A stretch of DNA of 47,685 bases from a virus (Duplodnaviria > Heunggongvirae > Uroviricota > Caudoviricetes). Within the stretch, counting starts at the first letter, position 1, and every line of letters begins with the position of its first letter. The translations under genes were made by a program, and so were the position numbers. The notes beneath the pieces were generated by a model. The model did no database searches. It was not told the origin of the DNA and saw nothing but the letters and a program-made list of their open reading frames with translations. Positions 5,700-22,136 of this stretch are shown here, in pieces. Where the stretch lies: IMG/VR virus record IMGVR_UViG_2513237200_000007. The stretch is one strand, 5' to 3'.

Positions 5700-5700
5700 A

Positions 5701-6513: not shown

Positions 6514-6744
6514 ATGCTTAAAACTGACGCTCTTTTGTATTTCGGTTCAAAAACAAAACTTGCACAAGCAGCAGGTATTCGTTTGGCTTCGCTTTATAGC
6601 TGGAAAGGGGATTTAGTTCCCGAAGGTCGCGCGATGCGTCTACAGGAGGCATCTGGCGGGGAGCTTCAGTATGATCCCAAAGTTTATGATGAATATCGTA
6701 AGACGAAGCGGGCGGGGCGGTTGAACAATGAAAATCACTCCTGA
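6514..6744 (+). CDS. dicC: Cro-like regulator DicC
   Basis: 76 aa, MLKTDALLYFGSKTKLAQAAGIRLASLYSWKGDLVPEGRAMRLQEASGG...; divergent partner of dicA. Confidence 0.8.
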   Translation: MLKTDALLYFGSKTKLAQAAGIRLASLYSWKGDLVPEGRAMRLQEASGGELQYDPKVYDEYRKTKRAGRLNNENHS

Positions 6745-7249
6745 ACAGGCTCGTGAGGCTCTGGATGCCTGGATATGTCGACCAGGAATGACACAGGAGC
6801 AGGCGACGATATTAATCACTGAAGCATTCTGGGCTTTGAAAGAGCGCCCGAACATCGATGTTCAGCGTGTCACATATGAAGGTGGCGCGATTGATCAGCG
6901 AGCGCTTGGCGTTAATCGAGTGAAGATATTTGAACGCTGGAAGGCTATCGACACCAGGGATAAGCGTGAAAAGTTCACGGCGCTAGTGCCTGCAATTATG
7001 GAGGCTATCCGGATTAATGATTTCAGGTTGTATCGTGAAATTACTGACGGAAAAAGCATCACGTGCATGATCGCCGGGTTAAACAAAGAATATGGCGATG
7101 TGGTGGAGTCCGGACTGCTTTTTGCTGATCCTGCCGTAGTGGATCGTGAAACTGACGAACTTATAGAAAAAGCAATTGCTTTCAAACTTGCGTATCGACA
7201 GCAATACCAACAAAAAGCTGGATGGAATTATGAGCCTTCTTTTTGCTGA
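6728..7249 (+). CDS. YdfX-like protein (intact form; CII-position regulatory or YdaT-like protein)
   Basis: 173-aa ORF overlapping dicC end by 17 nt; N-terminus MKITPEQAREALDAWICRPGMTQEQ... resembles the ydfX fragment of K-12 Qin as I recall it; function not established. Confidence 0.55.
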   Translation: MKITPEQAREALDAWICRPGMTQEQATILITEAFWALKERPNIDVQRVTYEGGAIDQRALGVNRVKIFERWKAIDTRDKREKFTALVPAIMEAIRINDFRLYREITDGKSITCMIAGLNKEYGDVVESGLLFADPAVVDRETDELIEKAIAFKLAYRQQYQQKAGWNYEPSFC

Positions 7250-8195
7250 ACGCCCACTGGTTATAAACACGCAGCTGGCAATGAAAATTGGCTTAAACGA
7301 AGCCATTGTTTTGCAACAACTGCACTACTGGTTGAGAGATACCAACTCCGGCATGGAATGTGATGGTGTTCGCTGGATTTATAACACAACGGAACAATGG
7401 CTGGAACAGTTCCCATTCTGGTCAGAGTCAACGTTAAAGCGCGCGTTTGCAAGTCTGAAAACGCTGGGGCTTTTGCGTTGTGAAAAGCTCAATAAATCAA
7501 AGCGCGATATGACCAATTTCTACACGATCAACTATGGGAGCGAGCTTTTAGATGGTGGCAAATTGAGCGAATCCATCGGTTCAAAATGCGCCGCTCCATC
7601 AGGTCAAAATGACACGATGGAAGAGGTCAAAATGAAACGCTCCATTGGTTCAAAACGACCCAATGTCATCGGGTCAAAATGGCCTGATGATCTTACAGAG
7701 AATACAACAGAGATTACTACAGAGAATAAAAACACTTTTCGTCCGGAAGCTTCGCAACCGGACCCGCAGACGACTGAACAGGATTTTTTAACCCGGAACT
7801 CCGACGCGGTTGTGTTTAGTGCGAAAAAACGCCAGTGGGGTAGCAGGGAGGATTTGGCGTGTGCGCAGTGGATCTGGGGGCGGATCGTGGGTCTCTACGA
7901 ACAGGCAGCCAGTGATGATGGCGAGATCATGCGACCAAAAGAGCCTAACTGGACTGCCTGGGCCAATGACGTGCGCACAATGCGGATGCTGGATGGCAGA
8001 AGCCACAGACAAATTTGCGAAATGTTTGGTCGGGTTCAGCGAGATCCATTCTGGGTAAAAAACATCATGAGCCCGTCAAAGCTCCGCGAAAAATGGGACG
8101 AACTGGTCATCCGCCTGGGACGTTCACCTGTACAGCGTTGTGTTAATCATATTTCTGAACCGGATACAGAAATTCCGCCTGGTTTCAGAGGATAA
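7230..8195 (+). CDS. phage replication initiation protein (O-like, N-terminal DNA-binding domain)
   Basis: Start at MSLLFAERPLVINTQLAMKIGLNEAIVLQQLHYWL (ATG 7230); contains an internal iteron array at the DNA level, as lambda O contains ori. Confidence 0.65.
   Translation: MSLLFAERPLVINTQLAMKIGLNEAIVLQQLHYWLRDTNSGMECDGVRWIYNTTEQWLEQFPFWSESTLKRAFASLKTLGLLRCEKLNKSKRDMTNFYTINYGSELLDGGKLSESIGSKCAAPSGQNDTMEEVKMKRSIGSKRPNVIGSKWPDDLTENTTEITTENKNTFRPEASQPDPQTTEQDFLTRNSDAVVFSAKKRQWGSREDLACAQWIWGRIVGLYEQAASDDGEIMRPKEPNWTAWANDVRTMRMLDGRSHRQICEMFGRVQRDPFWVKNIMSPSKLREKWDELVIRLGRSPVQRCVNHISEPDTEIPPGFRG
7571..7681 (+). repeat. five direct iterons with about 23-bp periodicity inside the replication gene, followed by an AT-rich stretch (putative ori)
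   Basis: Cores GGTTCAAAATG (7578), GGTCAAAATG (7602), GGTCAAAATG (7625), GGTTCAAAACG (7648), GGGTCAAAATG (7671); followed by AT-rich 7683-7745. Confidence 0.6.
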
Positions 8196-8235
8196 GTGTT
8201 GATTTCAGGTCATGAGGTAATTTTAAGGGGGACTT

Positions 8236-8658
8236 GTGGCAAAAGTTTTTACACAAGAAGAGCGGGAAAAAATTAAATGGCAGGTGGTGGAACTCGTGCG
8301 CCAGAGCGGCCGTGAGACGTTACGGCAACTGGAAGCTAAAACAGGTGCGACTAGATATCTGATGAGCGTTCTTGCCAGAGAGCTGGTAGCCAGTGGCGAT
8401 GTATACAACTCCGGCTACGGGTTATTCCCCTCTGAACAGGCGCGTAAGGACTGGCAAAACGCCCGCAAAAAACTCTCGAGGGCAAAGGTGAAGAAACCTG
8501 CTGTGGTTGATCCGGACCTTATCTGGTCATCACCTGACGGAGAAATACGTCGCTACGACAGTCGCCTAAACATAATCTGTCGCGAGTGCCGGAAGAGCGA
8601 AGTTATGCAGCGCATACTGGCTTTCTATCAGGGTAATTTTCAGGACGTGGCGCAGTGA
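8236..8658 (+). CDS. hypothetical protein (GTG start), translationally coupled to the downstream methyltransferase remnant
   Basis: 140-aa ORF with strong SD AAGGGGG 4-5 nt upstream of GTG 8236; stop overlaps the GTG of the next ORF (GTGA). No recognisable motif beyond a C-terminal CxxC. Confidence 0.5.
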   Translation: MAKVFTQEEREKIKWQVVELVRQSGRETLRQLEAKTGATRYLMSVLARELVASGDVYNSGYGLFPSEQARKDWQNARKKLSRAKVKKPAVVDPDLIWSSPDGEIRRYDSRLNIICRECRKSEVMQRILAFYQGNFQDVAQ

Positions 8659-9101
8659 GTGCACCGGCAACCATTCTTGATATGTGCTGTGGCAGCCGCA
8701 TGTTCTGGTTCGATAAGTCTGACGAACGGGCGATATTCAGCGATATCAGAAAAGAAGGATACACATTACGCAATGGGAGACGCTTGATTATCAGCCCTGA
8801 CATTATCGCAGATTTTCGTGCATTATCATTTGCAGACGCATCTTTTTCGATGGTTGTATTAGACCCTCCGCATCTTGAGAGTGTTGGTGATAACGCCTGG
8901 ATGGGAAAGAAATATGGACGGCTGAATAAAGATGCCTGGCGTGATGATTCGCGACAGAGATTTAAAGAAGCCTTTCGGGTGTTGAGGCCGCACGGCGTTC
9001 TGATTTTTTAATGGAATGAAACGCAAATACCGGTAAGCCAGATTCTGGCACTGACAGACAGAAAACCTGTTATCTGTCAACGAACAGGGAAAAAACGATA
9101 A
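8655..9101 (+). pseudogene. DNA methyltransferase remnant, truncated by in-frame TAA at 9009-9011
   Basis: N-terminal SAM-binding-like LDMCCGSR and catalytic-like VLDPPH motifs within 118 aa, then TAA; frame stays open a further 29 codons to the stop at 9099-9101; too short for a functional MTase. Confidence 0.45.
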
Positions 9102-9621
9102 AACCCACTGGATTATTTTTATGAAAGAGGCATCCAGTGAGTAGATTCGTAAGGCTACAGATACGTATATCTGAATAATTAAATTCAGTTCTGTAAATAA
9201 AATTTAATCCTTAACCGGATGGATTTCTGCACCCTCAGAACATCAGGAGGCCGCCCGAAAGGGCGGTAGTGAAATGCGAAAGTTCAAAATTATTATTGAA
9301 ACGGGAATAGCTGGTGGAGATTTTGAGGATGTATTCGAAGTGGACGATGACGCAACACCTGAGGAAATTCATGACGGAGCATAAGAAATTTTCTTTAACT
9401 ACTGCAATTACTCATACCACGAAATAAAAGACGATGAGGAAGAACAAAGTGGCTGATTTTTGTTCAGCTAAATATAACATCAGTTTTGAAGAGCGGGATG
9501 AACTATTAATGGACTATGGTGAGTTACGCGGTGGAAGTGCTGCTGATGTCGAATCCTAGCGTGATGACTATGAAGCGGGAAAAACTCCGGTCGAAGCATA
9601 TTGTGATGAGTGGGGCGATGA

Positions 9622-9909
9622 ATGAGCGAGATTAATTATCAGGAAGGGCATGAAACGGCGGGGCAAGCAAAACCAGTGGCATGGCGATATCGCTACGTGA
9701 AAAAAGGCGTTACGGACTTTCAGGGGAAGTAGTGGTCTGGTGACTGGAAATATGTACCGAAAAAAGAGGATTGTAACGACAGGCCGAACTATCAAATTCA
9801 GGCCTTATTCACTGCCTCACCAGTCCCAGTTACATCAGAAGAACTGGTTAAAGCTGTGCACTTTTATGAACAACTAAAACGCGAAAATCCACCAACATCC
9901 GGCAACTAG
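9622..9909 (+). pseudogene. small ORF interrupted by a single in-frame amber codon (TAG 9730-9732)
   Basis: MSEINYQEGHETAGQAKPVAWRYRYVKKGVTDFQGK-TAG-WSGDWKYVPKKEDCNDRPNYQIQALFTASPVPVTSEELVKAVHFYEQLKRENPPTSGN; 36 codons, stop, then 58 open codons in the same frame. Confidence 0.3.
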
Positions 9910-10163
9910 ATTAATGGATTAACTATGTCGGTTAAACGACCAGCCAACTGAAAAAGCGGAAACCTGATTACAGGTTGCCAGATAAGGCAATGAGCTACCT
10001 GGCGCGGAACGGACTGATAAGTATGGGGAATGTTTTACGATGAACCTTTAGACTAAAGAGTTTGTAACGCTATGTAAGTGATTTTTTCTGGTTTAGATAT
10101 TTATATGTCCGGCCAAATTGAGGTGTGTTTAAATGTAATTGCACATTGATTGTAGGAGGAATA

Positions 10164-10343
10164 ATGAAAAACGCATTGCAGTTTTTGTTTGTTGCGTTCT
10201 GGTTGTTCGCATCATGTATGCCCATCATCTTCACAGCAAGGTATATGGAAAAAGTTGATGTTTTGATATTAATATTTGGATATATAAATGCCCTTTTTTT
10301 AGGGGTGTTCATGGCGGTCATGTGCATTGAATACTGGCGGTAA
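10164..10343 (+). CDS. small predicted membrane protein (59 aa, two hydrophobic segments)
   Basis: MKNALQFLFVAFWLFASCMPIIFTARYMEKVDVLILIFGYINALFLGVFMAVMCIEYWR; strong SD AGGAGGA 4 nt upstream of ATG 10164. Confidence 0.45.
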   Translation: MKNALQFLFVAFWLFASCMPIIFTARYMEKVDVLILIFGYINALFLGVFMAVMCIEYWR

Positions 10344-10599
10344 ATACAGCGAACTCCATTGGTTTAGTTGGATATTTACTGTGCTGGACAAAAACGGTTT
10401 GCGGGGAAATCTTAGTTAAGTAGAATGACTGCGGGTGCTTGAGGCTATCTGCCTCGGGCATGGACACCAACGGCAGATAGAGAAAAGCCCCAGTTAACAT
10501 TACGCGTCCTGCAAGACGCTTAACATTAATCTGAGGCCAATTTCATGCTAGACACATGTAGGTTAGCCTCTTACGTGCCGAAAGGCACGGAGAAGCAGG

Positions 10600-12050
10600 C
10601 TATTGTTAACACCAAGCTGTAATGTCCCCTTTGAACCATTCTAAAATGTCCCCAGACAATTCTCTCGTGGATTTTTCATGATCAAAGAGACTGTTACGAT
10701 GAGTCATAAGGAACTCCACCGACTTCAGATTATTCAGGAACAAGCTGCGGCACGCATTGGCATTTCTATTCGGCAGGTTAAACGTCTGGTGCAACGGTAT
10801 AGAAATGAAGGGCCTTCTGGTCTGGTTTCCCACCGACGTGGAAAGCGTCCTAATAATTCCTTTTCTACTGAATTCAGAGCAACAGTAATTTCACTCCTCA
10901 AAGGCCGTTACGCTGATTTTGGACCTACGTTTGCGTGCGAAAAATTGCGCGAGATACACGGTTTATCTTTATCCGTTGAAACTCTCAGAAAGTGGATGAT
11001 AGAAGAGGGGTTATGGCGTGAACGCCGTCGTAAAATTGCCCGTATATATCAACGCCGCATGCGACGACCATCTTACGGTGAACTGATCCAGATTGATGGC
11101 TCACCTCATGACTGGTTTGAAAATCGAGGCCCCAGATGTACACTGATCGTTTTCATTGATGATGCCACCAGTGCGTTGATGGCGTTGCGTTTTGTGCCTG
11201 CTGAAACAACCCGGGCTTACATGGAAACCCTCCGGGGTTACCTTAATGATCATGGCGTACCGCTCGCTCTCTACTCTGATAGACACAGTATATTCAGGGT
11301 AAATAACCCAGAGCGGGAAGGTGAGCTGACCCAGTTCACTCGTGCGATAAAGACACTGGGCATCGAGCCAATCCATGCCAACAGCCCGCAGGCAAAAGGG
11401 CGGGTAGAGCGCGCCAATCAGACACTACAGGACAGGCTGGTCAAAGAAATGCGGCTTCAGAATATCAGTGATATTGAAACAGCAAATGCATGGTTGCCGA
11501 CCTTTATTGAAGCCTATAACAACCGGTTCGCTACGTCGCCTCGTACTACTGATAATGCTCATCTTGATGTGCACCATTCTGAAGAGGAACTGGGTTATAT
11601 CTTCAGCCTACAGGCGAAGCGCGTTCTGTCTAAAAATCTCACTTTCCAGTACAAAAGCAGTGCGTTTCAGGTACGCAGTGAGGGCCGGGGATATCGACTT
11701 AGGCATTCGGTTGTTACTGTATGCGAGAACTTTGACGGTGAAATTAACGTTCTGTATGACGGGAAAGCGCTGGGCTGGGAAAAGTATGTTGATGGCCCGG
11801 AGCCTATACCACTGGATGATGAAAAGAGTGTCCATGAACGAGTGGATAATGCCCGTATTGATTTACGCTCAAAATACTATGTTAAACCTAAAGCTGACCA
11901 TCCCTGGCTTACGCGCCGAACGCAAAGTCATCAGCAAGTTAAGCCCCCGAAGTTACCTAAAAAGAAGCCTGATCCCGATAAAAAAGATTGAAACCAAGAT
12001 CGATTCGGTTGAGTGCATATCCATTCATAGGGTAGATTCTTAAGTCGCGT
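10600..12050 (+). mobile_element. insertion sequence carrying an rve-type DDE transposase (IS481/ISNCY-like); ends not resolved
   Basis: Single transposase ORF with flanking non-coding sequence, lying where K-12 Qin has only pseudogenes; I could not identify terminal inverted repeats by eye, so coordinates are approximate. Confidence 0.35.
10678..11991 (+). CDS. DDE transposase with N-terminal HTH and retroviral-integrase-like (rve) catalytic core
   Basis: 437 aa; N-terminal HTH (HRLQIIQEQAAARIGISIRQVKRLVQRY), catalytic D (IQIDGSPHDWF), D (YSDRHSIF), E (KGRVERANQTLQDRL). Possible alternative start at MSHKEL (10699). Confidence 0.8.
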   Translation: MIKETVTMSHKELHRLQIIQEQAAARIGISIRQVKRLVQRYRNEGPSGLVSHRRGKRPNNSFSTEFRATVISLLKGRYADFGPTFACEKLREIHGLSLSVETLRKWMIEEGLWRERRRKIARIYQRRMRRPSYGELIQIDGSPHDWFENRGPRCTLIVFIDDATSALMALRFVPAETTRAYMETLRGYLNDHGVPLALYSDRHSIFRVNNPEREGELTQFTRAIKTLGIEPIHANSPQAKGRVERANQTLQDRLVKEMRLQNISDIETANAWLPTFIEAYNNRFATSPRTTDNAHLDVHHSEEELGYIFSLQAKRVLSKNLTFQYKSSAFQVRSEGRGYRLRHSVVTVCENFDGEINVLYDGKALGWEKYVDGPEPIPLDDEKSVHERVDNARIDLRSKYYVKPKADHPWLTRRTQSHQQVKPPKLPKKKPDPDKKD

Positions 12051-12427
12051 TTCTGGTGTTCATTTTCGGGTGGTTTGTTACTTGTTTTACCGGGGATATG
12101 CCAGAAACGCGCTGAGTCAGTCTGGGCGGTGCGCGTAATGAGGCGTTATGGTAAATAGCCTATGCTAATGTCCGCTAAGAGCAAGAAGCGGAAGTTGGCA
12201 GTTTTGTGGACTGTCCCCACAAAAGTGACTACAGAAATAGTTGCAATTCATAATTGATCATGGGTTGTCAGTTAAACTCGTGGCGATTTAAATAGACTAA
12301 TTGGGAGTGCGTCCATTACTTATATCTTGTAATGTTAACTATCAGAAATGATACAAAGATAATATGTCTTTAAAGAAAAGGCTGATGGCGAAAAGTGGCC
12401 CGATGAGGGCCACAATACGGCTGTCAC

Positions 12428-12760
12428 TTAGACGTAAATATCAATGGTGCCAGCGGTATTTGTATCGTCTTTTTTCTCTTCTTTTTTATCAGGCTGAACT
12501 GTCGCGTCTTCATTCTTTTTCTCTGCCTGCTGCCTTAACAACTGCTCCAGTTGAGCCCAGAGGCTTTCAATTTGCTTCTGTACCAATGCAGCCATTTCTT
12601 TTTTCTGCTGTGTCGTCATCCCCTCTTCCGATGAGATTTTCCCAAGCTTTTCAGTCAGCACCTGAATTTGTCTTGTGATTTTGGCTATTTCTGATGTTCC
12701 TTCCGGGGCGGAGTTGTTTGAAATAACGGTTGAGGTATTTCCCTGAATTGTGACAGACAT
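12428..12760 (-). CDS. flxA: FlxA-like protein (FliA-regulated)
   Basis: 110 aa, MSVTIQGNTSTVISNNSAPEGTSEIAKITRQIQVLTEKLGK..., recognised as FlxA; preceded by a sigma-28 consensus promoter. Confidence 0.85.
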   Translation of the reverse strand: MSVTIQGNTSTVISNNSAPEGTSEIAKITRQIQVLTEKLGKISSEEGMTTQQKKEMAALVQKQIESLWAQLEQLLRQQAEKKNEDATVQPDKKEEKKDDTNTAGTIDIYV

Positions 12761-12783
12761 AGATTTCTCCTTTTAAAAAAGCA

Positions 12784-12810
12784 CTATCGGCATGCACAAA
12801 AAAATCTTTA
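12784..12810 (-). promoter_or_regulatory. sigma-28 (FliA) promoter upstream of flxA
   Basis: Minus strand reads TAAAGATT-N11-GCCGATAG, against consensus TAAAGTTT-N11-GCCGATAA, about 25 nt upstream of the flxA ATG. Confidence 0.7.
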
Positions 12811-12962
12811 ATCGTATTTCTTGTGTCATTAATTGTTTGATGTTCAGATTGTTTTCCTCGCGGGCTGGCGCGCCTCAGAAAGTAAAGCTTGTTGACAGGG
12901 GTAAACGTTCGGCAATAATTTTCTGCCGCATGCGGGTGTTGCATAAAACGTGTTACGTTCCT

Positions 12963-13268
12963 TTATCGACAGGTCAGGTCACCGCTCACCCGCCGACGAG
13001 AAAGCAACACTGACATGCTAAAGCAAAAAATAGATGAATAAGTTGAGTTGTGCATATGTAGCCTGACCGTCACAAAGTATATGGTGTCTGTACCAGTAAG
13101 ATGATGGCCGGACTCTTTAAAAACGAGCTGACCTGCACAATACAGGATGGACTTAGCAATGGCTGCTCCTGGCACAAAGCGGACAGTGATCACCGTTCTT
13201 ACGACTACTTTCTGACTTCCTTCGTGACTTGCCCTAAGCATGTTGTAGTGCGATACTTGTAATGACAT
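12963..13268 (-). CDS. hypothetical ORF (YdfV-like by position and length)
   Basis: 101-aa ORF between relB promoter and flxA; composition is not convincingly protein-like; kept only because position and length match a gene annotated in Qin. Confidence 0.3.
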   Translation of the reverse strand: MSLQVSHYNMLRASHEGSQKVVVRTVITVRFVPGAAIAKSILYCAGQLVFKESGHHLTGTDTIYFVTVRLHMHNSTYSSIFCFSMSVLLSRRRVSGDLTCR

Positions 13269-13283
13269 TTGTAATTACAAGAG
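13229..13283 (+). promoter_or_regulatory. relB promoter with relO-like operator
   Basis: -35 TTGCCC (13229-13234), 17-nt spacer, -10 GATACT (13252-13257); operator-like inverted repeats CTTGTAATGACATTTGTAATTACAAG overlapping -10 and start site. Confidence 0.6.
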
Positions 13284-13292
13284 GTGTAAGAC

Positions 13293-13532
13293 ATGGGTAG
13301 CATTAACCTGCGTATTGACGATGAACTTAAAGCGCGTTCTTACGCCGCGCTTGAAAAAATGGGTGTAACTCCTTCTGAAGCGCTTCGTCTCATGCTCGAG
13401 TATATCGCTGACAATGAACGCTTGCCGTTCAAACAGACACTCCTGAGTGATGAAGATGCTGAACTTGTGGAGATAGTGAAAGAACGGCTTCGTAATCCTA
13501 AGCCAGTACGTGTGACGCTGGATGAACTCTGA
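13293..13532 (+). CDS. relB: RelB antitoxin
   Basis: 79 aa, MGSINLRIDDELKARSYAALEKMGVTPSEALRLMLEYIADNERLPF...; stop overlaps relE start. Confidence 0.9.
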   Translation: MGSINLRIDDELKARSYAALEKMGVTPSEALRLMLEYIADNERLPFKQTLLSDEDAELVEIVKERLRNPKPVRVTLDEL

Positions 13533-13819
13533 TGGCGTATTTTCTGGATTTTGACGAGCGGGCACTAAAGGAATGGCGAAAGCTGGGCTCGACGGTACGT
13601 GAACAGTTGAAAAAGAAGCTGGTTGAAGTACTTGAGTCACCCCGGATTGAAGCAAACAAGCTCCGTGGTATGCCTGATTGTTACAAGATTAAGCTCCGGT
13701 CTTCAGGCTATCGCCTTGTATACCAGGTTATAGACGAGAAAGTTGTCGTTTTCGTGATTTCTGTTGGGAAAAGAGAACGCTCGGAAGTATATAGCGAGGC
13801 GGTCAAACGCATTCTCTGA
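13532..13819 (+). CDS. relE: RelE mRNA interferase toxin
   Basis: 95 aa, MAYFLDFDERALKEWRKLGSTVREQLKKKLVEVLESPRIE...; ATGA overlap with relB. Confidence 0.9.
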   Translation: MAYFLDFDERALKEWRKLGSTVREQLKKKLVEVLESPRIEANKLRGMPDCYKIKLRSSGYRLVYQVIDEKVVVFVISVGKRERSEVYSEAVKRIL

Positions 13820-13890
13820 ACCAAAGCATGACATCTCTGTTTCGCACCGAAGGTGACACTTCTGCTTTGCGTTGACAGGAGAAGCAGGCT

Positions 13891-14046
13891 ATGAAGCAGC
13901 AAAAGGCGATGTTAATCGCCCTGATCGTCATCTGTTTAACCGTCATAGTGACGGCACTGGTAACGAGGAAAGACCTCTGCGAGGTACGAATCCGAACCGG
14001 CCAGACGGAGGTCGCTGTCTTCACAGCTTACGAACCTGAGGAGTAA
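13891..14046 (+). CDS. hokD: HokD (RelF) small membrane toxin, 51 aa (below ORF-track cutoff)
   Basis: Hand translation from ATG 13891: MKQQKAMLIALIVICLTVIVTALVTRKDLCEVRIRTGQTEVAVFTAYEPEE, stop TAA 14044-14046; Hok family features. Confidence 0.8.
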   Translation: MKQQKAMLIALIVICLTVIVTALVTRKDLCEVRIRTGQTEVAVFTAYEPEE

Positions 14047-14114
14047 GAGACCCGGCGGGGGAGAAATCCCTCGCCACCTCTGATGTGGCAGGCATCCTCA
14101 ACGCACCCGCACTT

Positions 14115-14140
14115 AACCCGCTTCGGCGGGTTTTTGTTTT
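14115..14140 (+). terminator. rho-independent terminator after relBE-hokD
   Basis: Hairpin CCCGC-TTCG-GCGGG followed by TTTTTGTTTTT. Confidence 0.6.
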
Positions 14141-14262
14141 TATTTTCAACGCGTTTGAAGTTCTGGACGGTGCCGGAATAGAATCAAAAATACTTAAGTA
14201 GCGCGCAGGGATAAGAGGGATGGTCCCTTAAAGGGGAGAGCTAATTATCCGGAAGGATTCTG

Positions 14263-14514
14263 ATGATGAACATCGAAGAACTGCGTAAAATTTTTTGTGA
14301 AGATGGCCTCTATGCTGTGTGCGTTGAAAATGGAAATCTTGTTAGTCATTACCGCATTATGTGTTTGCGAAAGAATGGGGCTGCGTTAATTAATTTTGTG
14401 GATGCTCGGGTCACGGACGGATTTATCTTGCGCGAAGGTGAGTTTGTCACTTCATTACAGGCATTGAAAGAGATCGGAATAAAAGCTGGCTTTTCTGCTT
14501 TTTCAGGAGAATAA
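14263..14514 (+). CDS. rem: Rem-like protein
   Basis: 83 aa, MMNIEELRKIFCEDGLYAVCVENGNLVSHYRIMCL...; position between hokD and ydfU as in Qin. Confidence 0.7.
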   Translation: MMNIEELRKIFCEDGLYAVCVENGNLVSHYRIMCLRKNGAALINFVDARVTDGFILREGEFVTSLQALKEIGIKAGFSAFSGE

Positions 14515-14580
14515 ACTCATCTACAATCTTGCGCGGGGCTGAACTCCCGCTGAGTAACACCGTGCCACCGGAGAAAACCG

Positions 14581-14859
14581 ATGGCACGCAACGCAAAATA
14601 TTACAATTCTGATAATTCGCCCGTTCTTGCCTGCACGCACGGGCGGTATTCTCACGCATTCAAGTCTGAATGGTTCCAGCACCCTCCATGCACTGCAGAA
14701 CAGGCCGAATGGCTGATTCATTCTTACCGCAGGCGCGGGTTCGAGGTTAAGAAAGCTCTCAGTCTCGACTATCGGCACTGGATAATCTCTGTCAGGCTGC
14801 CTTATTCCGAACGCCCACCACGTGCGTCCCGCACTTTCCAGCAACGGATCTGGAGGTAA
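14581..14859 (+). CDS. hypothetical protein (nin-region-like)
   Basis: 92-aa ORF with SD GGAG; its stop at 14857-14859 immediately precedes the ydfU GTG (14861). Confidence 0.4.
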   Translation: MARNAKYYNSDNSPVLACTHGRYSHAFKSEWFQHPPCTAEQAEWLIHSYRRRGFEVKKALSLDYRHWIISVRLPYSERPPRASRTFQQRIWR

Positions 14860-14860
14860 C

Positions 14861-15910
14861 GTGCGGGTATTACTTAGACCTGTTCTGGTGCCTGAGCTTG
14901 GGCTGGTGGTCCTTAAGCCGGGCCGTGAATCCATACAGATATTTCATAATCCTCGAGTGCTGGTGGAACCGGAACCAAAAAGCATGCGTAATCTGCCATC
15001 CGGAGTCGTTCCTGCCGTTCGCCAGCCGCTGGCGGAAGACAAAACATTGCTGCCGTTTTTTAGTAACGAACGGGTGATTCGTGCTGCTGGCGGCGTTGGC
15101 GCATTGTCCGACTGGCTATTACGTCATGTTACATCCTGCCAGTGGCCTAATGGCGATTACCATCACACTGAAACAGTCATTCACCGTTATGGTACCGGCG
15201 CAATGGTGTTGTGCTGGCACTGCGACAACCAACTGCGTGACCAGACATCGGAATCACTGGAGCTGCTTGCTCAACAAAATCTGACAGCATGGGTGATTGA
15301 CGTCATCCGTCACGCAATAAGCGGTACGCAGGAGCGGGAATTATCTTTGGCTGAATTATCCTGGTGGGCGGTCTGCAATCAGGTGGTGGATGCACTACCT
15401 GAGGCTGTATCGCGTCGTTCGCTGGGATTACCAGCGGAAAAAATCTGCTCGGTGTACCGCGAAAGCGACATCGTACCGGGAGAGCAGACCGCCACCAGCA
15501 TATTGAAACAACGCACAAAAAATCTTGCACCGTTGCCTTACGCCCACCAGCAACAAAAATCACCACAGGAAAAGACGGTGGTAAGCATCACCGTTGATCC
15601 AGAGTCTCCGGAATCTTTCATGAAGCTGCCTAAACGTCGCCGCTGGGTTAAGGAGAAATACACACGTTGGGTTAAGACACAGCCGTGTGCTTGCTGCGGT
15701 ATGCCAGCCGACGATCCGCATCATCTGATTGGTCACGGGCAGGGCGGAATGGGAACAAAAGCACATGATCTCTTTGTGTTGCCTTTGTGCAGAAAGCATC
15801 ACAACGAGCTGCATACGGATACAGTGGCATTTGAAGATAAGTATGGCTCCCAACTGGAGCTGATATTTCGTTTTATCGATCGCGCGCTGACAATTGGCGT
15901 ACTGGCGTAA
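14861..15910 (+). CDS. ydfU: YdfU-like protein (DUF968; HNH-like Cys/His motif)
   Basis: 349 aa from GTG 14861 with SD GGAGG 4 nt upstream; C-terminal CACCGMPADDPHHLIGHG...CRKHHNELH motif. Confidence 0.75.
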   Translation: MRVLLRPVLVPELGLVVLKPGRESIQIFHNPRVLVEPEPKSMRNLPSGVVPAVRQPLAEDKTLLPFFSNERVIRAAGGVGALSDWLLRHVTSCQWPNGDYHHTETVIHRYGTGAMVLCWHCDNQLRDQTSESLELLAQQNLTAWVIDVIRHAISGTQERELSLAELSWWAVCNQVVDALPEAVSRRSLGLPAEKICSVYRESDIVPGEQTATSILKQRTKNLAPLPYAHQQQKSPQEKTVVSITVDPESPESFMKLPKRRRWVKEKYTRWVKTQPCACCGMPADDPHHLIGHGQGGMGTKAHDLFVLPLCRKHHNELHTDTVAFEDKYGSQLELIFRFIDRALTIGVLA

Positions 15911-15923
15911 GTGGAGAACGAGC

Positions 15924-16676
15924 ATGAACCTTGAAGCCTTACCAAAATATTACTCCCCAAAATCTCCAAAATTGAGCGATGACGCTCCAGCGACAGGCAC
16001 CGGTTGTTTAACAATTACGGATGTAATGGCAGCGCAGGGGATGGTGCAGTCGAAAGCACCACTTGGGTTGGCCTTATTTCTGGCAAAAGTTGGTGTTCAG
16101 GACCCTCAGTTTGCGATTGAAGGCCTGCTAAATTACGCGATGGCACTGGATAACCCGACATTGAACAAATTGAGTGAAGAAATCCGGTTACAGATTATTC
16201 CTTACCTCGTGAGTTTTGCCTTTGCTGATTACTCCAGGTCTGCGGCAAGTAAGGCTCGCTGTGAGCATTGTTCAGGTACGGGATTTTATAATGTATTGCG
16301 CGAAGTGGTGAAACACTACAGACGCGGGGAATCTGTAATCAAGGAAGAATGGGTGAAGGAACTATGTCAGCATTGCCATGGTAAGGGCGAAGCCAGCACA
16401 GCGTGCAGAGGGTGTAAGGGTAAAGGGATTGTTCTGGATGAAAAAAGAACCCGGTTTCATGGCGTACCGGTATATAAGATTTGTGGGCGTTGTAATGGAA
16501 ACCGGTTTAGTCGTTTACCGACCACGCTGGCACGACGTCATGTCCAGAAGCTGGTACCAGACCTGACCGATTATCAGTGGTATAAGGGGTATGCGGACGT
16601 CATTGGTAAACTGGTAACAAAGTGCTGGCAGGAAGAAGCATACGCGGAAGCGCAATTGAGGAAGGTGACGAGATAA
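15924..16676 (+). CDS. quuQ: late-gene antiterminator Q-like protein
   Basis: 250 aa from MNLEALPKYYSPKSPK; CxxC...CxxC zinc-binding region (CEHCSGTGFY...CQHCHGKGE...CRGCKGKG); immediately followed by a late-promoter-like element and terminator. Confidence 0.8.
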   Translation: MNLEALPKYYSPKSPKLSDDAPATGTGCLTITDVMAAQGMVQSKAPLGLALFLAKVGVQDPQFAIEGLLNYAMALDNPTLNKLSEEIRLQIIPYLVSFAFADYSRSAASKARCEHCSGTGFYNVLREVVKHYRRGESVIKEEWVKELCQHCHGKGEASTACRGCKGKGIVLDEKRTRFHGVPVYKICGRCNGNRFSRLPTTLARRHVQKLVPDLTDYQWYKGYADVIGKLVTKCWQEEAYAEAQLRKVTR

Positions 16677-16707
16677 ATGATTTTTGCTGAAGATGGCGAC
16701 ATGATGT

Positions 16708-16736
16708 TTGCATTTTTCAAAAAATATGGATAAAAT
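16708..16736 (+). promoter_or_regulatory. pR'-like late promoter downstream of Q
   Basis: -35 TTGCAT (16708-16713), 17-nt spacer, -10 TAAAAT (16731-16736). Confidence 0.5.
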
Positions 16737-16782
16737 TTTTTCAACGATGGGCTTTGTATACCCGACGTTAAGAAAAAGTAGA

Positions 16783-16812
16783 AAACCCGCTGATGAGCGG
16801 GTTTTGTGCTTT
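16783..16812 (+). terminator. tR'-like intrinsic terminator of a short late leader transcript
   Basis: Hairpin AACCCGCT-GATG-AGCGGGTT followed by TTGTGCTTT, about 50 nt downstream of the predicted late-promoter start site. Confidence 0.5.
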
Positions 16813-17097
16813 AAATGGGGCAATGGTAATGTTGAATCTCATCCCGGGACTCATGTCTGTTAACTTATTATTTAGCTGGTGACTTGGTTATTTGCCTGAT
16901 GTTTAAAATGTTTTCTTCCAGTACAATGTCCCTAAACACAATGAGTCTGCTTATTATATTATTAGCAGAGCTATTACGGCCAAAGTACAGCATAAGCTTT
17001 TAAAGCCAATCAACCAGTCATCAAGACAGACGGGGTTATTCATAAAAACTCTCCATGTGTGATCCGATGGGGCCTGAAATTAAAGCTTTAATATAGC

Positions 17098-17310
17098 TCA
17101 TGAAAGGTAAACATTGGCAGCTGAAGGGCCACGCAGACCATTTATCCGGCAAAATTCCACGCGTAATCCGGTGGTAATTTCTTCTGCATCGCGGAGATTG
17201 AGCGCTGAAACATGAAGCTGGACATCGATACGACCATCGGATGGGGTGATAAGACCCTTGCCGCTTTTGCCGTCAAAGGTTTTGACAATTCCTGTCATTT
17301 TACGGGACAA
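17098..17310 (-). CDS. cspF: cold-shock-domain protein CspF-like
   Basis: 70 aa, [38 protein letters not shown]...; CSD fold motifs. Confidence 0.85.
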
Positions 17311-17610
17311 AAAAATTCCTTAATACTGATAACTTGGCGCACTATACACACGTTCCTGAAGAAAGCTATAGTTTTTTGATGGGGTTGAAGATGGCTGGAT
17401 GTCTAAAATAAACATTGCTTCATATGTTCAACTATGCGTTAATGATTGCGTCGGTTTGAAGAACAGACGATATACGAAGTAGTTTACTAAAGCAGTTCTC
17501 ATTTCAGGTGTTATTCACTTATTCCTTCTTTGAGTCTCTCCAATTAAGTACGAAGTCGTTTCTGTTATGCAAACCATTTATGCCGAAAGGCTCAAGTTAA
17601 GGAATGTAGA

Positions 17611-17826
17611 ATGTCAAATAAAATGACTGGTTTAGTAAAATGGTTTAACGCTGATAAAGGTTTCGGCTTTATTTCTCCTGTTGATGGTAGTAAAGATGTG
17701 TTTGTGCATTTTTCTGCGATTCAGAATGATAATTATCGAACCTTATTTGAAGGTCAAAAGGTTACCTTCTCTATAGAGAGTGGTGCTAAAGGTCCTGCAG
17801 CAGCAAATGTCATCATTACTGATTAA
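17611..17826 (+). CDS. cspB: cold-shock protein CspB-like
   Basis: 71 aa, [38 protein letters not shown]...; RNP1/RNP2 motifs; long 5' leader typical of csp genes. Confidence 0.9.
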
Positions 17827-18107
17827 AATTCATCGCTCGTCTGTATACGATAACGAAGAAGGCTGATGCCTGAGTAGAGATACGGACAGAGTAGTGAATA
17901 TTGGATCTCTTTAATAAAAAGTAAGGAGGTCCAATACATGAAACAATGGCTAGCATATTTGGCAAAATCTTAATCAGGAAAAGTATGCTAACCATTGTGG
18001 TGAAGTGCAGGTTTGCTGCATGAATAGTTTTACAGCAGAAGCTAACTGCTGGCATGGCAAAACAAAGTGCGTAAGTGGATGACTCCCACAAAAAGCACCA
18101 CAATCTC

Positions 18108-18131
18108 AAACCCGCTCAGGCGGGTTTTTTA
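18108..18131 (+). terminator. rho-independent terminator after cspB
   Basis: Hairpin AAACCCGC-TCAG-GCGGGTTT followed by T-run. Confidence 0.6.
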
Positions 18132-18219
18132 TTATCTGCTTTAAATATATTATTAAAATATAAAAAATACTTGTTACTAATAAAATCAATCAGGCTACAG
18201 CTTTAAGATTTGTCTGGAA

Positions 18220-18228
18220 TACTTTGTT
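18220..18228. repeat. 9-bp target-site duplication (left copy) of IS10
   Basis: TACTTTGTT immediately flanks both IS10 ends (18220-18228 and 19558-19566). Confidence 0.8.
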
Positions 18229-19557
18229 CTGAGAGATCCCCTCATAATTTCCCCAAAGCGTAACCATGTGTGAATAAATTTTGAGCTAGTAGGGTTGCAG
18301 CCACGAGTAAGTCTTCCCTTGTTATTGTGTAGCCAGAATGCCGCAAAACTTCCATGCCTAAGCGAACTGTTGAGAGTACGTTTCGATTTCTGACTGTGTT
18401 AGCCTGGAAGTGCTTGTCCCAACCTTGTTTCTGAGCATGAACGCCCGCAAGCCAACATGTTAGTTGAAGCATCAGGGCGATTAGCAGCATGATATCAAAA
18501 CGCTCTGAGCTGCTCGTTCGGCTATGGCGTAGGCCTAGTCCGTAGGCAGGACTTTTCAAGTCTCGGAAGGTTTCTTCAATCTGCATTCGCTTCGAATAGA
18601 TATTAACAAGTTGTTTGGGTGTTCGAATTTCAACAGGTAAGTTAGTTGCTAGAACCCATGGCTCCTTTGCCGACGCTGAGTAGATTTTAGGTGACGGGTG
18701 GTGACAATGAGTCCGTGTCGAGCGCTGATTTTTTCGGCCTTTAGAGCGAGATTTATACAATAGAATTTGGCATGAGATTGGATTGCTTTTAGTCAGCCTC
18801 TTATAGCCTAAAGTCTTTGAGTGACTAGATGACATATCATGTAAGTTGCTGATAGGTTTCCAGTTTTCCGCTCCTAGGTCTGCATATTGTACTTTTCCTC
18901 TTACTCGACTTAACCAGTACCAACCCAGCTTCTCAACGGATTTATACCATGGCACTTTAAAGCCAGCATCACTGACAATGAGCGGTGTGGTGTTACTCGG
19001 TAGAATGCTCGCAAGGTCGGCTAGAAATTGGTCATGAGCTTTCTTTGAACATTGCTCTGAAAGCGGGAACGCTTTCTCATAAAGAGTAACAGAACGACCG
19101 TGTAGTGCGACTGAAGCTCGCAATACCATAAGTCGTTTTTGCTCACGAATATCAGACCAGTCAACAAGTACAATGGGCATCGTATTGCCCGAACAGATAA
19201 AGCTAGCATGCCAACGGTATACAGCGAGTCGCTCTTTGTGGAGGTGACGATTACCTAACAATCGGTCGATTCGTTTGATGTTATGTTTTGTTCTCGCTTT
19301 GGTTGGCAGGTTACGGCCAAGTTCGGTAAGAGTGAGAGTTTTACAGTCAAGTAATGCGTGGCAAGCCAACGTTAAGCTGTTGAGTCGTTTTAAGTGTAAT
19401 TCGGGGCAGAATTGGTAAAGAGAGTCGTGTAAAATATCGAGTTCGCACATCTTGTTGTCTGATTATTGATTTTTCGCGAAACCATTTGATCATATGACAA
19501 GATGTGTATCCACCTTAACTTAATGATTTTTACCAAAATCATTAGGGGATTCATCAG
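18229..19557 (-). mobile_element. complete IS10 (1329 bp)
   Basis: Inside end CTGAGAGATCCCCTCATAATTTCCCC at 18229; outside end ...GGGGATTCATCAG ending at 19557; single 402-aa transposase; flanked by 9-bp direct repeat. Confidence 0.95.
18242..19450 (-). CDS. IS10 transposase
   Basis: 402 aa, MCELDILHDSLYQFCPELHLKRLNSLTLACHALLDCKTLTLTELGRNL..., recognised as the IS10/Tn10 transposase. Confidence 0.95.
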   Translation of the reverse strand: MCELDILHDSLYQFCPELHLKRLNSLTLACHALLDCKTLTLTELGRNLPTKARTKHNIKRIDRLLGNRHLHKERLAVYRWHASFICSGNTMPIVLVDWSDIREQKRLMVLRASVALHGRSVTLYEKAFPLSEQCSKKAHDQFLADLASILPSNTTPLIVSDAGFKVPWYKSVEKLGWYWLSRVRGKVQYADLGAENWKPISNLHDMSSSHSKTLGYKRLTKSNPISCQILLYKSRSKGRKNQRSTRTHCHHPSPKIYSASAKEPWVLATNLPVEIRTPKQLVNIYSKRMQIEETFRDLKSPAYGLGLRHSRTSSSERFDIMLLIALMLQLTCWLAGVHAQKQGWDKHFQANTVRNRNVLSTVRLGMEVLRHSGYTITREDLLVAATLLAQNLFTHGYALGKL

Positions 19558-19566
19558 TACTTTGTT
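19558..19566. repeat. 9-bp target-site duplication (right copy) of IS10
   Basis: TACTTTGTT, identical to 18220-18228. Confidence 0.8.
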
Positions 19567-19698
19567 GCAATGAGGGCAGATCAAAAGGGCACCTTTTTGT
19601 ACTCTTGAAAAACTGTGTTCTGACTCTTGGGTGCAGTTTGGGCAGGAACATTTAACGAGATAATTACGGCGTGATTTTGAGTTTTTACGTTCTGACAT
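19558..19698 (-). pseudogene. small zinc-ribbon ORF interrupted by IS10 (originally about 56 aa)
   Basis: From ATG 19696-19698: MSERKNSKSRRNYLVKCSCPNCTQESEHSFSRVQKGALLICPHCNKV, then reads into IS10. Joining across the element using the duplicated 9 bp restores ...CNKVFQTNLKAVA-stop (stop at 18190-18192). Confidence 0.5.
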
Positions 19699-19917
19699 AG
19701 GCTTTTCCTGTATAAATGGCCGTATACAGTACACTAAATATGAAAACATTTCTCGTATTATTATTTTATATATGACTTTCTTTCAAAATAATTACCCACA
19801 TTTTTAATGTGTATGTTTTTTTAGCGCCGTTGAGAACAACGTGTGCTGTCAAAACTACCCCGTAGACTCCGATCTTTTCAAACATATTGCACCATCCGTG
19901 TACATCGGGGTGAGGAT

Positions 19918-20133
19918 ATGAAATCAATGGATAAGTTAACAACAGGTGTTGCCTATGGCACATCGGCGGGTAATGCTGGTTTCTGGGCATTGCAGTTACT
20001 CGATAAAGTAACTCCGTCACAGTGGGCTGCAATCGGTGTGCTGGGTAGCCTGGTTTTTGGCCTGCTGACGTATCTGACAAATCTTTATTTCAAGATTAAA
20101 GAAGACAGGCGTAAGGCTGCGAGAGGAGAGTAA
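19918..20133 (+). CDS. essQ: holin (phage 21 S-like class II holin)
   Basis: 71 aa from [71 protein letters not shown]; two TM segments and charged C-terminus. Confidence 0.85.
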
Positions 20134-20137
20134 TCCA

Positions 20138-20445
20138 ATGACTCAAGACTATGAACTGGTTGTGAAAGGAGTCCGTAATTTTGAGAATAAAGTTACGGTA
20201 ACTGTAGCCTTACAGGACAAAGAACGCTTTGACGGTGAAATTTTTGACCTGGATGTCGCCATGGACCGTGTTGAAGGAGCTGCGCTGGAGTTTTATGAGG
20301 CAGCAGCCAGAAGGAGCGTCCGGCAAGTCTTCCTGGAAGTAGCAGAAAAATTGTCAGAAAAAGTTGAGTCTTATCTGCAGCATCAGTACTCCTTTAAGAT
20401 TGAAAATCCTGCCAATAAGCACGAGCGTCCTCATCATAAATATCT

Positions 20446-20449
<4 letters not shown>
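20138..20449 (+). CDS. ydfR: YdfR-like protein (DUF1327) between holin and endolysin
   Basis: 103-aa ORF, tightly packed in the lysis cassette; stop overlaps the endolysin start. Confidence 0.7.
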
Positions 20450-21473
<1,024 letters not shown>

Positions 21474-21835
21474 GGTAATATTAAATCGGAACATTTACAT
21501 CGCGGAATGTAAAATTTAAATAAAAAGGACTCTTCCATGAGCCAAAATTCCTGAAATCTTAAGGGTAAGATAAAAGGTCTTAATCAGAATGACACGTTTT
21601 ATTAATAAATAAAGCTATTCTTTCATTGCTGTGTTTTTCTTTACAAAAGTAATCCTTGCTATGGGTGGTTAATCATGCGTTAATGGTGTTCTGGTTTGTT
21701 ACAAATTTATCTGAAGCAGTCATTGTTATAATTTTATTATTTGTACCTCTTGAGATTTCCTTGTTGGTTTTTCTCTCTGATATTTTTTTTCGGACCATTC
21801 TGCCCAAGGGCTAATTTCTTCAAAAGGTAATAATT

Positions 21836-22048
21836 ATGTCTAACAAAATGACTGGTTTAGTGAAATGGTTTAACCCTGAAAAAGGTTTTGGTTTCATCAC
21901 GCCGAAAGATGGCAGCAAAGATGTGTTTGTCCATTTCTCAGCAATTCAGAGCAACGATTTCAAAACATTAACTGAGAATCAGGAAGTTGAATTTGGTATT
22001 GAGAACGGACCTAAAGGTCCTGCCGCTGTTCATGTAGTGGCGCTTTGA
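21836..22048 (+). CDS. cspI: cold-shock protein CspI-like
   Basis: 70 aa, [45 protein letters not shown]... Confidence 0.9.
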
Positions 22049-22136
22049 GGTAGACAATATTACAAACCATATTCACTTTAGATGCCCGTGTTGTCATGGT
22101 TCCCAGTATAGAACATCATCTTTTGATGTTTCTGAC

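Follow-up and report, generated by a model that had tools for sequence, protein, structure and literature searches.

Within a Qin-like prophage, a complete copy of IS10 interrupts the gene ynfU near its 3' end, at a point between the late regulator and the lysis genes. The prophage DNA lies in a stretch of 47,685 nucleotides (here, the window). The interruption is a simple insertion that carries a 9-bp target duplication. Very probably, it records a recent cut-and-paste transposition of IS10 within a lineage derived from Escherichia coli W; its consequences, and a net effect that we infer to be near-neutral, are part of the same reading. The mutation is genuine and private to the strain, but ordinary and of an already known kind, with nothing that should surprise specialists. 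The features on which this reading draws are collected in Table 1.

Table 1. Features of the window at and around the IS10 insertion in ynfU
Feature	Position	Strand	Basis or remark
Second IS10, outside-end 107 bp, cut by the window edge	1-107	-	Same orientation; between rspB and the prophage integrase
Late antiterminator Q (ydfT/quuQ)	15924-16676	+	Pfam PF03589, E 3.6e-54; annotated "antitermination protein"
Candidate late promoter, TTTGCA, 18-nt spacer, TAAAAT	16707-16736	+	Consensus scan, inferred; just 3' of Q
GC-rich hairpin with T-rich run	16782-16812	+	Read from sequence, inferred; just 3' of Q
cspA-type 5' UTR thermoregulator	17450-17842		Rfam match
cspB with intrinsic terminator (18108-18135)	17611-18135	+	~93 bp left of IS10
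Orphaned ynfU 3' end, codons 48-56 (FQTNLKAVA) and stop	18190-18219	-	Sequence and reconstruction
Left target-site duplication, TACTTTGTT	18220-18228	.	Abuts IS10
Complete IS10, 1329 bp	18229-19557	-	Inside end 18229, outside end 19557
IS10 transposase gene, intact, 402 aa	18242-19450	-	ORF; Pfam PF01609 DDE_Tnp_1, E 1.5e-24
Chimeric ORF, 102 aa	19390-19698	-	YnfU residues 1-47 and 55 IS10-encoded residues
RNA-OUT antisense RNA gene	19443-19512	+	Rfam RF00240, model 1-70 of 70
ynfU 5' part, codons 1-47	19558-19698	-	Translation; start at 19698, MSERK...CNKV
Right target-site duplication, TACTTTGTT	19558-19566	.	Abuts IS10; minus strand is YnfU codons 45-47 (N-K-V)
Candidate ynfU promoter, TTGAAA, 18-nt spacer, AATAAT	19757-19786	-	Consensus scan, 10/12, best in region
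Lysis cassette: essD/essQ holin, ydfR, rrrQ lysozyme, rzpQ	19918-21473	+	PF04971, PF07041, PF00959, PF10721

The element is IS10, a member of the IS4 family. Its 1329 bp are the published length of IS10 (PMC4574204), and its termini are imperfect inverted repeats that match at 17 of their first 23 positions. The transposase, of the DDE type, is encoded by the single long ORF of the element; its ATG falls at bp 108 counted from the right-hand (outside) end, and GATC occurs only at bp 67 and 1320. Opposite the transposase start sits the gene for the antisense RNA, RNA-OUT. This scores 98.8 bits against the Rfam model (gathering score 41), is predicted to fold stably into a stem-loop (-23.9 kcal/mol; z = -5.1), and coincides with RNA-OUT as mapped to IS10 nt 115 to 47 (PMC5006887). 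In its length, both end sequences, transposase, RNA-OUT, GATC positions and 9-bp target duplication, the element is the same as IS10-Right of Tn10, with no differences in the element itself. Many copies on plasmids also match it with 100% identity along all 1329 bp, and it shows 0 mismatches to a copy that adjoins the integrase in E. coli LY180. That LY180 copy is annotated as an "IS4-like element ISVsa5 family transposase" (WP_001339197.1); "IS4-like element ISVsa5 family" is the name that the NCBI pipeline gives to IS10.

The target sequence, TACTTTGTT, is found twice in the window, each time directly against an end of IS10, and is single-copy at the corresponding site in LY180, W, K-12 and the isolated phage 2H10. 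The initial annotation had described a complete 1329-bp IS10, flanked by a perfect 9-bp direct repeat as expected of a simple insertion, and both descriptions stand; no evidence contradicts this structure. IS10 is known to use non-consensus target sites as well. Here, the target is the one feature that gives a mixed picture: it agrees poorly with the classic hotspot NGCTNAGCN (3 of 6 specified positions) but fits all four specified positions of the relaxed IS10 target consensus, NRCNNNGYN (PMC4574204).

The site before insertion can be seen directly. Aligned to LY180, a derivative of W, the window matches over 18,228 and 28,128 bp with 0 mismatches apart from the insertion; what the two aligned segments share is exactly the 9 bp of the target. 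Because nothing but the insertion separates the two sequences, LY180 provides a near-isogenic empty site. Across its 1263 bp, the reconstructed empty site in turn shows 100% identity with K-12 MG1655 and with many other E. coli in which ynfU is annotated. Thus, the empty site and the intact 56-aa ORF, which were sought in relatives as a check on the initial annotation, are present in LY180, W and K-12, as well as in many other genomes, with 100% identity. The 25-kb late region of the window matches the W lineage, and the host most likely belongs to the series of W-derived production strains that runs from W through KO11 to LY180. A K-12 background was considered and rejected; alignment to MG1655 reveals segments of ~21 kb, 4.8 kb and 2.2 kb that are additional or divergent.

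The occupied site is, on the other side, private. When 5,426 complete genomes of E. coli were queried with the 2.6-kb whole site and with the 120-bp right junction, neither was found in any of them; the matches returned were IS10 copies elsewhere. Other insertion sequences have entered the same interval between cspB and essD at loci that are otherwise 100% identical: IS5 in FDAARGOS_1249, IS1A in cS76a, and IS200C in FDAARGOS_1370/1371. These belong to other families, and all three examples examined leave ynfU intact, whereas the IS10 insertion, alone among them, breaks it.

The interrupted ORF is ynfU, a known putative zinc-binding gene of the Qin prophage, and is so annotated in K-12, LY180 and W (RefSeq). 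Removing IS10 and one copy of the repeat joins 47 codons to FQTNLKAVA and a stop, giving 56 amino acids. The cut after codon 47 is therefore nine codons ahead of the native stop, just where the initial annotation had placed it. The reconstructed protein matches Pfam PF23499 with 107.3 bits (cut-off 27) over profile positions 1-49 of 49. Homologues in other phages are 59-63% identical; in these, CPNC (19-22) and CPHC (41-44), the putative zinc knuckles, are invariant, the conserved core stops at F48, and the tail beyond F48 is variable. The paired knuckles (CPxC twice) have been described before, in a study that also detected tagged K-12 YnfU, which was the most abundant of the small proteins newly found there (10.1101/511675). 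The 56-aa frame is thus both conserved and, in K-12, made into protein. The earlier description of a small zinc-ribbon ORF was right as to structure, but did not recognize the ORF as a gene already known. A sequence search against solved structures gives weak zinc-finger matches (Tim15, E 0.013; the PhnA-like PA0128, E 0.11). The literature search for a YnfU function or phenotype returned the discovery paper and passing mentions, none of which reports one. The same search also turned up one intergenic polymorphism, in an evolution study with silver nanoparticles.

The insertion does more than shorten this gene. The initial annotation spoke of truncation, and the cut itself is correct; the product, however, is a 102-aa chimera, since the frame reads on for 55 codons into IS10. 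The chimeric ORF crosses the outside end and then the transposase start, in a different frame, before its stop at 19390. Compared with ynfU in K-12 Qin (56 aa, PF23499), the gene here holds the same place, downstream of cspB and divergent from the holin gene, with identical nucleotides on either side of IS10; it differs in that codons 48-56 are detached and replaced, in frame, by the 55 IS10 codons. All five cysteines (C17, C19, C22, C41, C44) lie in the retained codons, and the chimera still scores 100.3 bits against PF23499, over profile positions 1-47 of 49. The candidate ynfU promoter, a consensus match alone, is left intact. The chimera would therefore keep the YnfU core (1-47) and exchange a nine-residue variable tail for 55 residues from IS10, which may destabilize it. 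In the Qin prophage, ynfU looks like a "moron" lodged between cspB and the holin gene.

The surroundings are those of a lambdoid late operon. On one strand follow Q, a promoter and a terminator (both consensus matches), and then holin, endolysin and Rz. Pfam and the annotation agree with the original placement of the site between Q/cspB and the holin-endolysin-Rz genes of a Qin-like prophage. Upstream of IS10 are Q (a Q-type antiterminator), cspF and cspB. The holin is of the P21 type (PF04971), and is followed by a DUF1327 protein, the lysozyme and an Rz-like protein; the cassette starts 361 bp to the right of the outside end of IS10 and 475 nt from the start of RNA-OUT. The isolated phage 2H10 has the same gene order from Q to the lysis cassette.

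Late transcription in lambdoid phages relies on Q, and antitermination by lambdoid Q is expected to override Rho-dependent polarity. Here, IS10 lengthens the leader that precedes the holin gene, counted from the candidate late promoter, from 1836 to 3174 nt. For ordinary transcription, an untranslated leader that grows from ~1.8 to ~3.2 kb would be polar. Because the cspB terminator and the hairpin that follows Q already stand in the way of late transcripts, however, Q-dependent antitermination is implied, and it should blunt polarity on late transcription; Q-modified polymerase should largely read through IS10. The element also brings a promoter of its own. From the position of the transposase ATG and the RF00240 match, pOUT and RNA-OUT run rightwards, facing the holin gene and antisense to the residual 5' part of ynfU, and pOUT could therefore add to holin-gene transcription rather than reduce it, perhaps through weak constitutive read-through. 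Neither this outward promoter nor Q antitermination had figured in the initial annotation. The consensus promoter scan missed both pIN and pOUT, whose hexamers fall under its thresholds.

IS10 has expanded in the W/KO11/LY180 lineage and is known to be active there. Matches to its outside end occur at about 28 places in LY180. The literature on this lineage describes yqhC::IS10 in EMFR9 and rearrangements promoted by IS10 in KO11; in XW043-derived clones, focA::IS10 arose independently three times, with polarity on pflB. The yqhC and focA cases resemble the present one in the element, the W-derived lineage, the simple insertion and a possible polar effect; they differ from it in being tied to selected phenotypes, whereas ynfU::IS10 lies in a prophage gene with no known phenotype. 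Further copies of the element lie in or around the prophage. The start of the window lies in a second IS10, a fact that the initial annotation had overlooked: nucleotides 1-107 are 100% identical to 19451-19557, with a partial RNA-OUT match at 1-62. The LY180 counterpart is a full 1329-bp IS10 flanked by the duplication CACTGCGCT; W lacks it. A single 47-kb prophage thereby has three copies within or beside it (IS10-A, IS10-B, IS10-C), more than expected by chance (Poisson P ~0.003, calculated post hoc), and two of these, IS10-A and IS10-C, are lineage-specific and bracket it.

Four other accounts of the insertion deserve weighing against a near-neutral transposition. That an assembler misplaced a repeated IS10 is scarcely credible. 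Some 28 copies in the lineage do, of course, offer repeats of the kind that mislead assemblers, but misassembly would yield no target duplication. Here, an element of exactly 1329 bp stands between colinear flanks with 0 mismatches, and the 9 bp perfectly duplicated at its ends occur in one copy in the parent, and on the strength of that duplication we reject the artefact. Polarity, the effect proposed in the initial annotation, is a more serious candidate. It would have the 1.3 kb of untranslated IS10, read antisense to the transposase, terminate late transcripts (through Rho or intrinsically), lowering holin, endolysin and Rz and attenuating lysis. The longer leader speaks for this, as does the lowering of pflB transcription downstream of focA::IS10 in the same lineage; further, the plus strand across IS10 holds only short ORFs, with a C-rich, G-poor stretch at ~18850-18970 that might load Rho. 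Yet the terminator scan finds no plus-strand site resembling an intrinsic terminator within IS10, the antitermination that late transcripts seem to need at the two upstream terminators is expected to beat Rho, and IS5, IS1A and IS200C occupy the same interval in other E. coli. We therefore regard attenuated lysis as doubtful.

The converse effect, low constitutive transcription of holin and endolysin by read-through from pOUT, with antisense transcription over the ynfU start that converges with the ynfU promoter ~300 bp away, also strikes us as unlikely. In its favor, 475 nt separate pOUT/RNA-OUT, on the plus strand, from the essD ATG downstream, the scan finds no plus-strand terminator-like site from the end of IS10 to essD, and read-through from pOUT has been reported at ~10% of PlacUV5, activating neighboring genes (in part, PMC4574204). 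Against it, most pOUT transcripts stop at IS10 nt 47 as the 69-nt RNA-OUT (PMC5006887), the 360-nt untranslated stretch ahead of essD could permit Rho termination, and constitutive holin and endolysin would be harmful in a strain that is viable, so that any such expression must be low. Selection during laboratory evolution, for an altered YnfU (for example) or for blunted prophage lysis under inhibitor or DNA-damage stress, is quite improbable. The IS10 insertions in yqhC and focA were adaptive in this lineage, and three copies cluster in and around the prophage; clustering, however, also arises from tolerance in non-essential DNA. Moreover, YnfU has no reported function or phenotype and retains its conserved core, the early region of the prophage contains pseudogenes and an IS fragment and the prophage may therefore not be inducible, and the insertion is present in one genome only. 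A bolder version has IS10 rewire, by pOUT or by polarity, a lysis cassette of the pinholin type in a Qin prophage of full length, and so alter autolysis or stress tolerance in an industrial strain, with the bracketing copies reflecting local hopping, or selection that dismantles or mobilizes the prophage; this we consider a long shot. What we infer instead is near-neutrality, with limited polarity and weak read-through from pOUT, the likeliest net phenotype being that of a near-neutral passenger mutation in non-essential prophage DNA. Because three copies exceed chance, the insertion may not be purely neutral, and selection or local hopping may have played some part.

The main practical use of ynfU::IS10 is as a strain-specific marker. 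It is also a reminder that IS10 is still mobile in production strains derived from W, KO11 and LY180, where it has changed phenotypes before. For those who wish to ask what YnfU does, the insertion provides a natural allele in which the core is kept and the tail replaced. Likewise, the natural arrangement that points pOUT at a holin gene could be used to gauge how well late transcription under Q withstands the insertion of an IS. Finally, a third IS10 in or near the prophage gives recombination something to work on. IS10-A and IS10-B form a direct repeat spanning 18 kb, and IS10-B and IS10-C an inverted pair around the 28-kb late region. Such pairs could drive deletion or inversion of the segments between them; the direct repeats, in particular, could delete the 18-kb early region.

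The element in question is a complete IS10 that entered ynfU by cut-and-paste insertion with duplication of nine base pairs. Its left end is CTGAGAGATCCCCTCATAATTTC and its right end the reverse complement of CTGATGAATCCCCTAATGATTTT; read as inverted repeats, these termini agree imperfectly, at 17 of the first 23 positions. Just two copies of the 9-mer TACTTTGTT exist in the 47,685-bp window (18220-18228 and 19558-19566), each abutting an end of IS10. The length, the repeat, the transposase and the antisense RNA (RNA-OUT) all confirm what the initial annotation had claimed, a complete 1329-bp IS10 within a perfect 9-bp direct repeat, and the gene order likewise places it with the Q/late-promoter region on one side and the lysis genes on the other. 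The target fits the relaxed IS10 consensus NRCNNNGYN and matches the classic hotspot at three of six positions. Within the element, GATC is found at bp 67 and 1320 and nowhere else. Many plasmid-borne copies of IS10 are 100% identical to this one, which the NCBI pipeline labels "IS4-like element ISVsa5 family."

The transposase ATG is bp 108 of IS10, numbered from the right-hand end. The RNA-OUT stretch, which is predicted to form a stable stem-loop (-23.9 kcal/mol, z = -5.1), corresponds to IS10 nt 115 to 47, agreeing with the published RNA-OUT (PMC5006887). Because the transposase start and RNA-OUT are located there, the right-hand end is the outside end of IS10. This, in turn, means that the outward promoter pOUT fires rightwards, on the + strand. 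It points toward the lysis genes, with the holin ATG 475 nt away, an orientation that the initial annotation did not note. It is also antisense to the remaining 5' part of ynfU, and convergent with a candidate ynfU promoter at 19757-19786.

Features of the IS10 insertion, its surroundings and Rfam matches in the window
Feature	Position	Strand	Remarks
IS10	18229-19557		exactly 1329 bp
Transposase ORF	18242-19450	minus	402 aa; sole long ORF of IS10; DDE domain PF01609, E 1.5e-24
RNA-OUT (IS10 antisense RNA)	19443-19512	+	Rfam model full length, 98.8 bits (gathering score 41)
Orphaned last nine ynfU codons and stop codon	18190-18219		
Q-type antiterminator ydfT/quuQ	15924-16676	+	PF03589
Candidate late promoter	16707-16736	+	TTTGCA, 18-nt spacer, TAAAAT; consensus-like; 31-60 bp past Q stop codon
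Symmetric GC-rich hairpin, then T-rich run	16782-16812		T-runs on both strands
cspF		minus	between Q and lysis side, left of IS10
cspB		+	thermoregulator 5' UTR; own terminator 18108-18135
P21-type holin essD/essQ	19918-20133		
ydfR, lysozyme rrrQ, Rz-like rzpQ			downstream, with holin
cspA-type thermoregulator 5' UTRs, before cspB and cspI	17450-17842, 21690-22075	+	Rfam, gathering threshold
DicF sRNA	4930-4981	minus	Rfam, gathering threshold
IS009, inside tail-fibre assembly gene region	47017-47215	+	Rfam, gathering threshold

The empty site is readily found. With IS10 and one repeat taken out, 1263 bp remain that K-12 MG1655 and many other E. coli share at 100% identity; at least 80% of this sequence is present in 1,618 genomes. 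LY180, an E. coli W derivative (NC_022364.1), offers the sharper comparison: window 1-18228 and 19558-47685 align to it over 18,228 and 28,128 bp with 0 mismatches. The two alignments share, in LY180, exactly the 9-bp target. As the flanks are identical and their overlap is the target, IS10 and its duplication are the sole difference over 47.7 kb, and LY180 is a near-isogenic empty site. The 9-mer is likewise present once in the ancestral strain W (NC_017635.1) and in the isolated phage 2H10. A single nucleotide separates window 107-18228 (here equal to LY180) from strain W over the 18.1-kb early region; in the 28.1-kb late region all three are identical. Neither the occupied site nor its right junction was found in any of the 5,426 complete E. 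coli genomes searched; within that collection, the insertion is private to the source strain.

The interrupted minus-strand frame is ynfU, annotated by RefSeq in K-12, LY180, W and many more as "putative zinc-binding protein YnfU" (WP_211180497.1). The intact 56-aa frame is present in relatives lacking this insertion, and the reconstructed protein matches its dedicated Pfam family, PF23499, over all 49 profile positions (107 bits). The discovery paper (10.1101/511675) describes YnfU as Qin-encoded, with two CPXC zinc knuckles, and ranks it most abundant among the small proteins newly found. A literature search found no published function or phenotype, and comparison with solved zinc-finger structures gave weak matches only. 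Homologues at 98-100% identity occur in the isolated phages 2H10, Tritos, HannyBb, PhiR42_1 and PhiR63_1, and more distant ones in phage PHB10 (63%) and a Klebsiella phage (59%). In 2H10 and the Klebsiella phage, as in the window, ynfU is divergent and just upstream of the holin gene. The frame is 98% identical but unannotated in 2H10 (NC_049950.1 41957-42124; 2501-2668 of our locus L008) and in Tritos (OV696610.1 41550-41717).

IS10 cuts ynfU after codon 47, which bears out the initial count of nine codons to the native stop. The accompanying claim of truncation needs amending: the gene is interrupted, but the frame does not stop at the cut. It reads on for 55 codons through the outside end of IS10 and meets a stop codon at 19390; the predicted product, a 102-aa chimera, still reaches 100 bits against PF23499. 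Among homologues, the cysteines and the core to F48 are conserved, while the tail past F48 varies. The chimera would keep the conserved core and gain a foreign 55-residue tail; it might still function, function differently, or be too unstable to function. Adaptive selection of the insertion is very improbable.

On sequence grounds, 16707-16812 could well be a late promoter followed by its terminator, and transcripts of cspF, arriving from the opposite strand, would end at the hairpin too. Measured from the candidate promoter up to the holin ATG, the leader grows from 1836 to 3174 nt through IS10. Under ordinary transcription, an untranslated IS RNA of 1.3 kb would exert polarity, and IS10 has been polar in this same lineage, where three independent focA::IS10 insertions in XW043-derived clones affected pflB. 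The + strand of IS10 also has one C-rich, G-poor stretch (~18850-18970), but no intrinsic-terminator-like site was found on that strand within the element. Further, two terminators already stand in the way of late transcripts, and getting past them implies Q antitermination. Lambdoid Q proteins are expected to suppress Rho-dependent polarity through antitermination, and should do so across IS10 as well. A measurable loss of transcription into the lysis genes through IS10 is, on balance, unlikely.

Equally doubtful is measurable transcription of neighbouring genes from pOUT. Read-through is reported at roughly 10% of PlacUV5, activating neighbouring genes, but most transcripts from pOUT stop short, as the 69-nt RNA-OUT. 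Since read-through is reported nonetheless, weak constitutive transcription toward the holin gene, antisense to the remnant of ynfU, may occur. Our best estimate is that the ynfU insertion is a near-neutral passenger mutation.

Other E. coli also carry IS elements in the cspB-essD interval, but with ynfU spared each time: IS5 or IS1A on the holin side of ynfU, or IS200C on its cspB side, in loci otherwise 100% identical (for example FDAARGOS_1249, cS76a and FDAARGOS_1370; loci L003, L004 and L005). The interval is AT-rich (28-38% G+C), and IS elements have repeatedly landed in it, separating Q from the lysis genes.

Activity of IS10 in the W-derived lineage is already documented: yqhC::IS10 has been published in EMFR9, and IS10-promoted rearrangements in KO11. 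Thus the element, the gene and the prophage are all already known, and events of this type have been published more than once for the lineage; the exact insertion site alone is new.

The outside end of IS10 is matched at about 28 places in LY180. Two of these copies flank the prophage. The window holds only the outside end of one (1-107), in the same orientation as the ynfU copy and abutting the integrase side. Its LY180 counterpart, between rspB and the integrase, is a full 1329 bp with the 9-bp duplication CACTGCGCT (46641-47974 of L002, the LY180 locus excerpt) and 0 mismatches to the ynfU IS10; it is common to LY180, AQ15, HBUT-L and hubt-sl. The other, inverted, lies in the pinQ invertase gene ~127 bp past the right end of the window at 47685 (L002 1-278, LY180 record 1686000-1686277), and its target TGCTGAGCC perfectly matches the consensus NGCTNAGCN. 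In LY180 the prophage is therefore bracketed, with IS10 outside ends facing inwards. Strain W has none of the three copies (rspB-integrase, ynfU, pinQ). Three IS10 within about 47 kb compare with ~28-29 copies per 4.8-Mb genome (expected ~0.29; post hoc Poisson P about 0.003), a clustering in excess of chance. Local hopping could account for it, or a tolerance of prophage DNA for insertions. Lying as a direct repeat, 1-107 and 18229-19557 (18.1 kb) form a deletion substrate that could remove the 18-kb early region; the inverted pair (28 kb) is an inversion substrate that could flip the 28-kb late region.

The prophage is the Qin found in the W lineage. Colinear with K-12 Qin (99.7-99.97% identity), it adds ~21 kb of lambda-like virion genes (24665-45719) and a 4.8-kb replication-region block (7007-11807), and its integrase-adjoining segment (1329-3514) is not in K-12. 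E. coli W and its engineered derivatives LY180, AQ15, HBUT-L, hubt-sl and SL112 carry the 25-kb late region at 100% identity. The W genome paper places Qin at ydfJ in that strain (PMC3032704), and PMC4444293 lists LY180 among the derivatives of W. From Q to the tail fibres, the late module shares 91-97% identity with that of the temperate phage 2H10, whereas the early regions differ.

With its full lambda-like virion gene set, this Qin greatly exceeds the K-12 remnant in completeness, and it has in addition an intact 431-aa integrase, an excisionase and an 837-aa exonuclease. In the early region, genes at about 9000-12000 are marked by RefSeq as frameshifted or with internal stops in W and LY180, and a partial ISNCY-family transposase (HTH and rve_3 domains) lies at 10678-11991. 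Because of these pseudogenes and this IS fragment, induction is doubtful, and the prophage may be defective despite its complete late region. Within the block missing from K-12 Qin, an Rfam match to the sok antitoxin RNA (104 bits; 10433-10604, + strand) suggests an extra hok/sok-type locus besides hokD.
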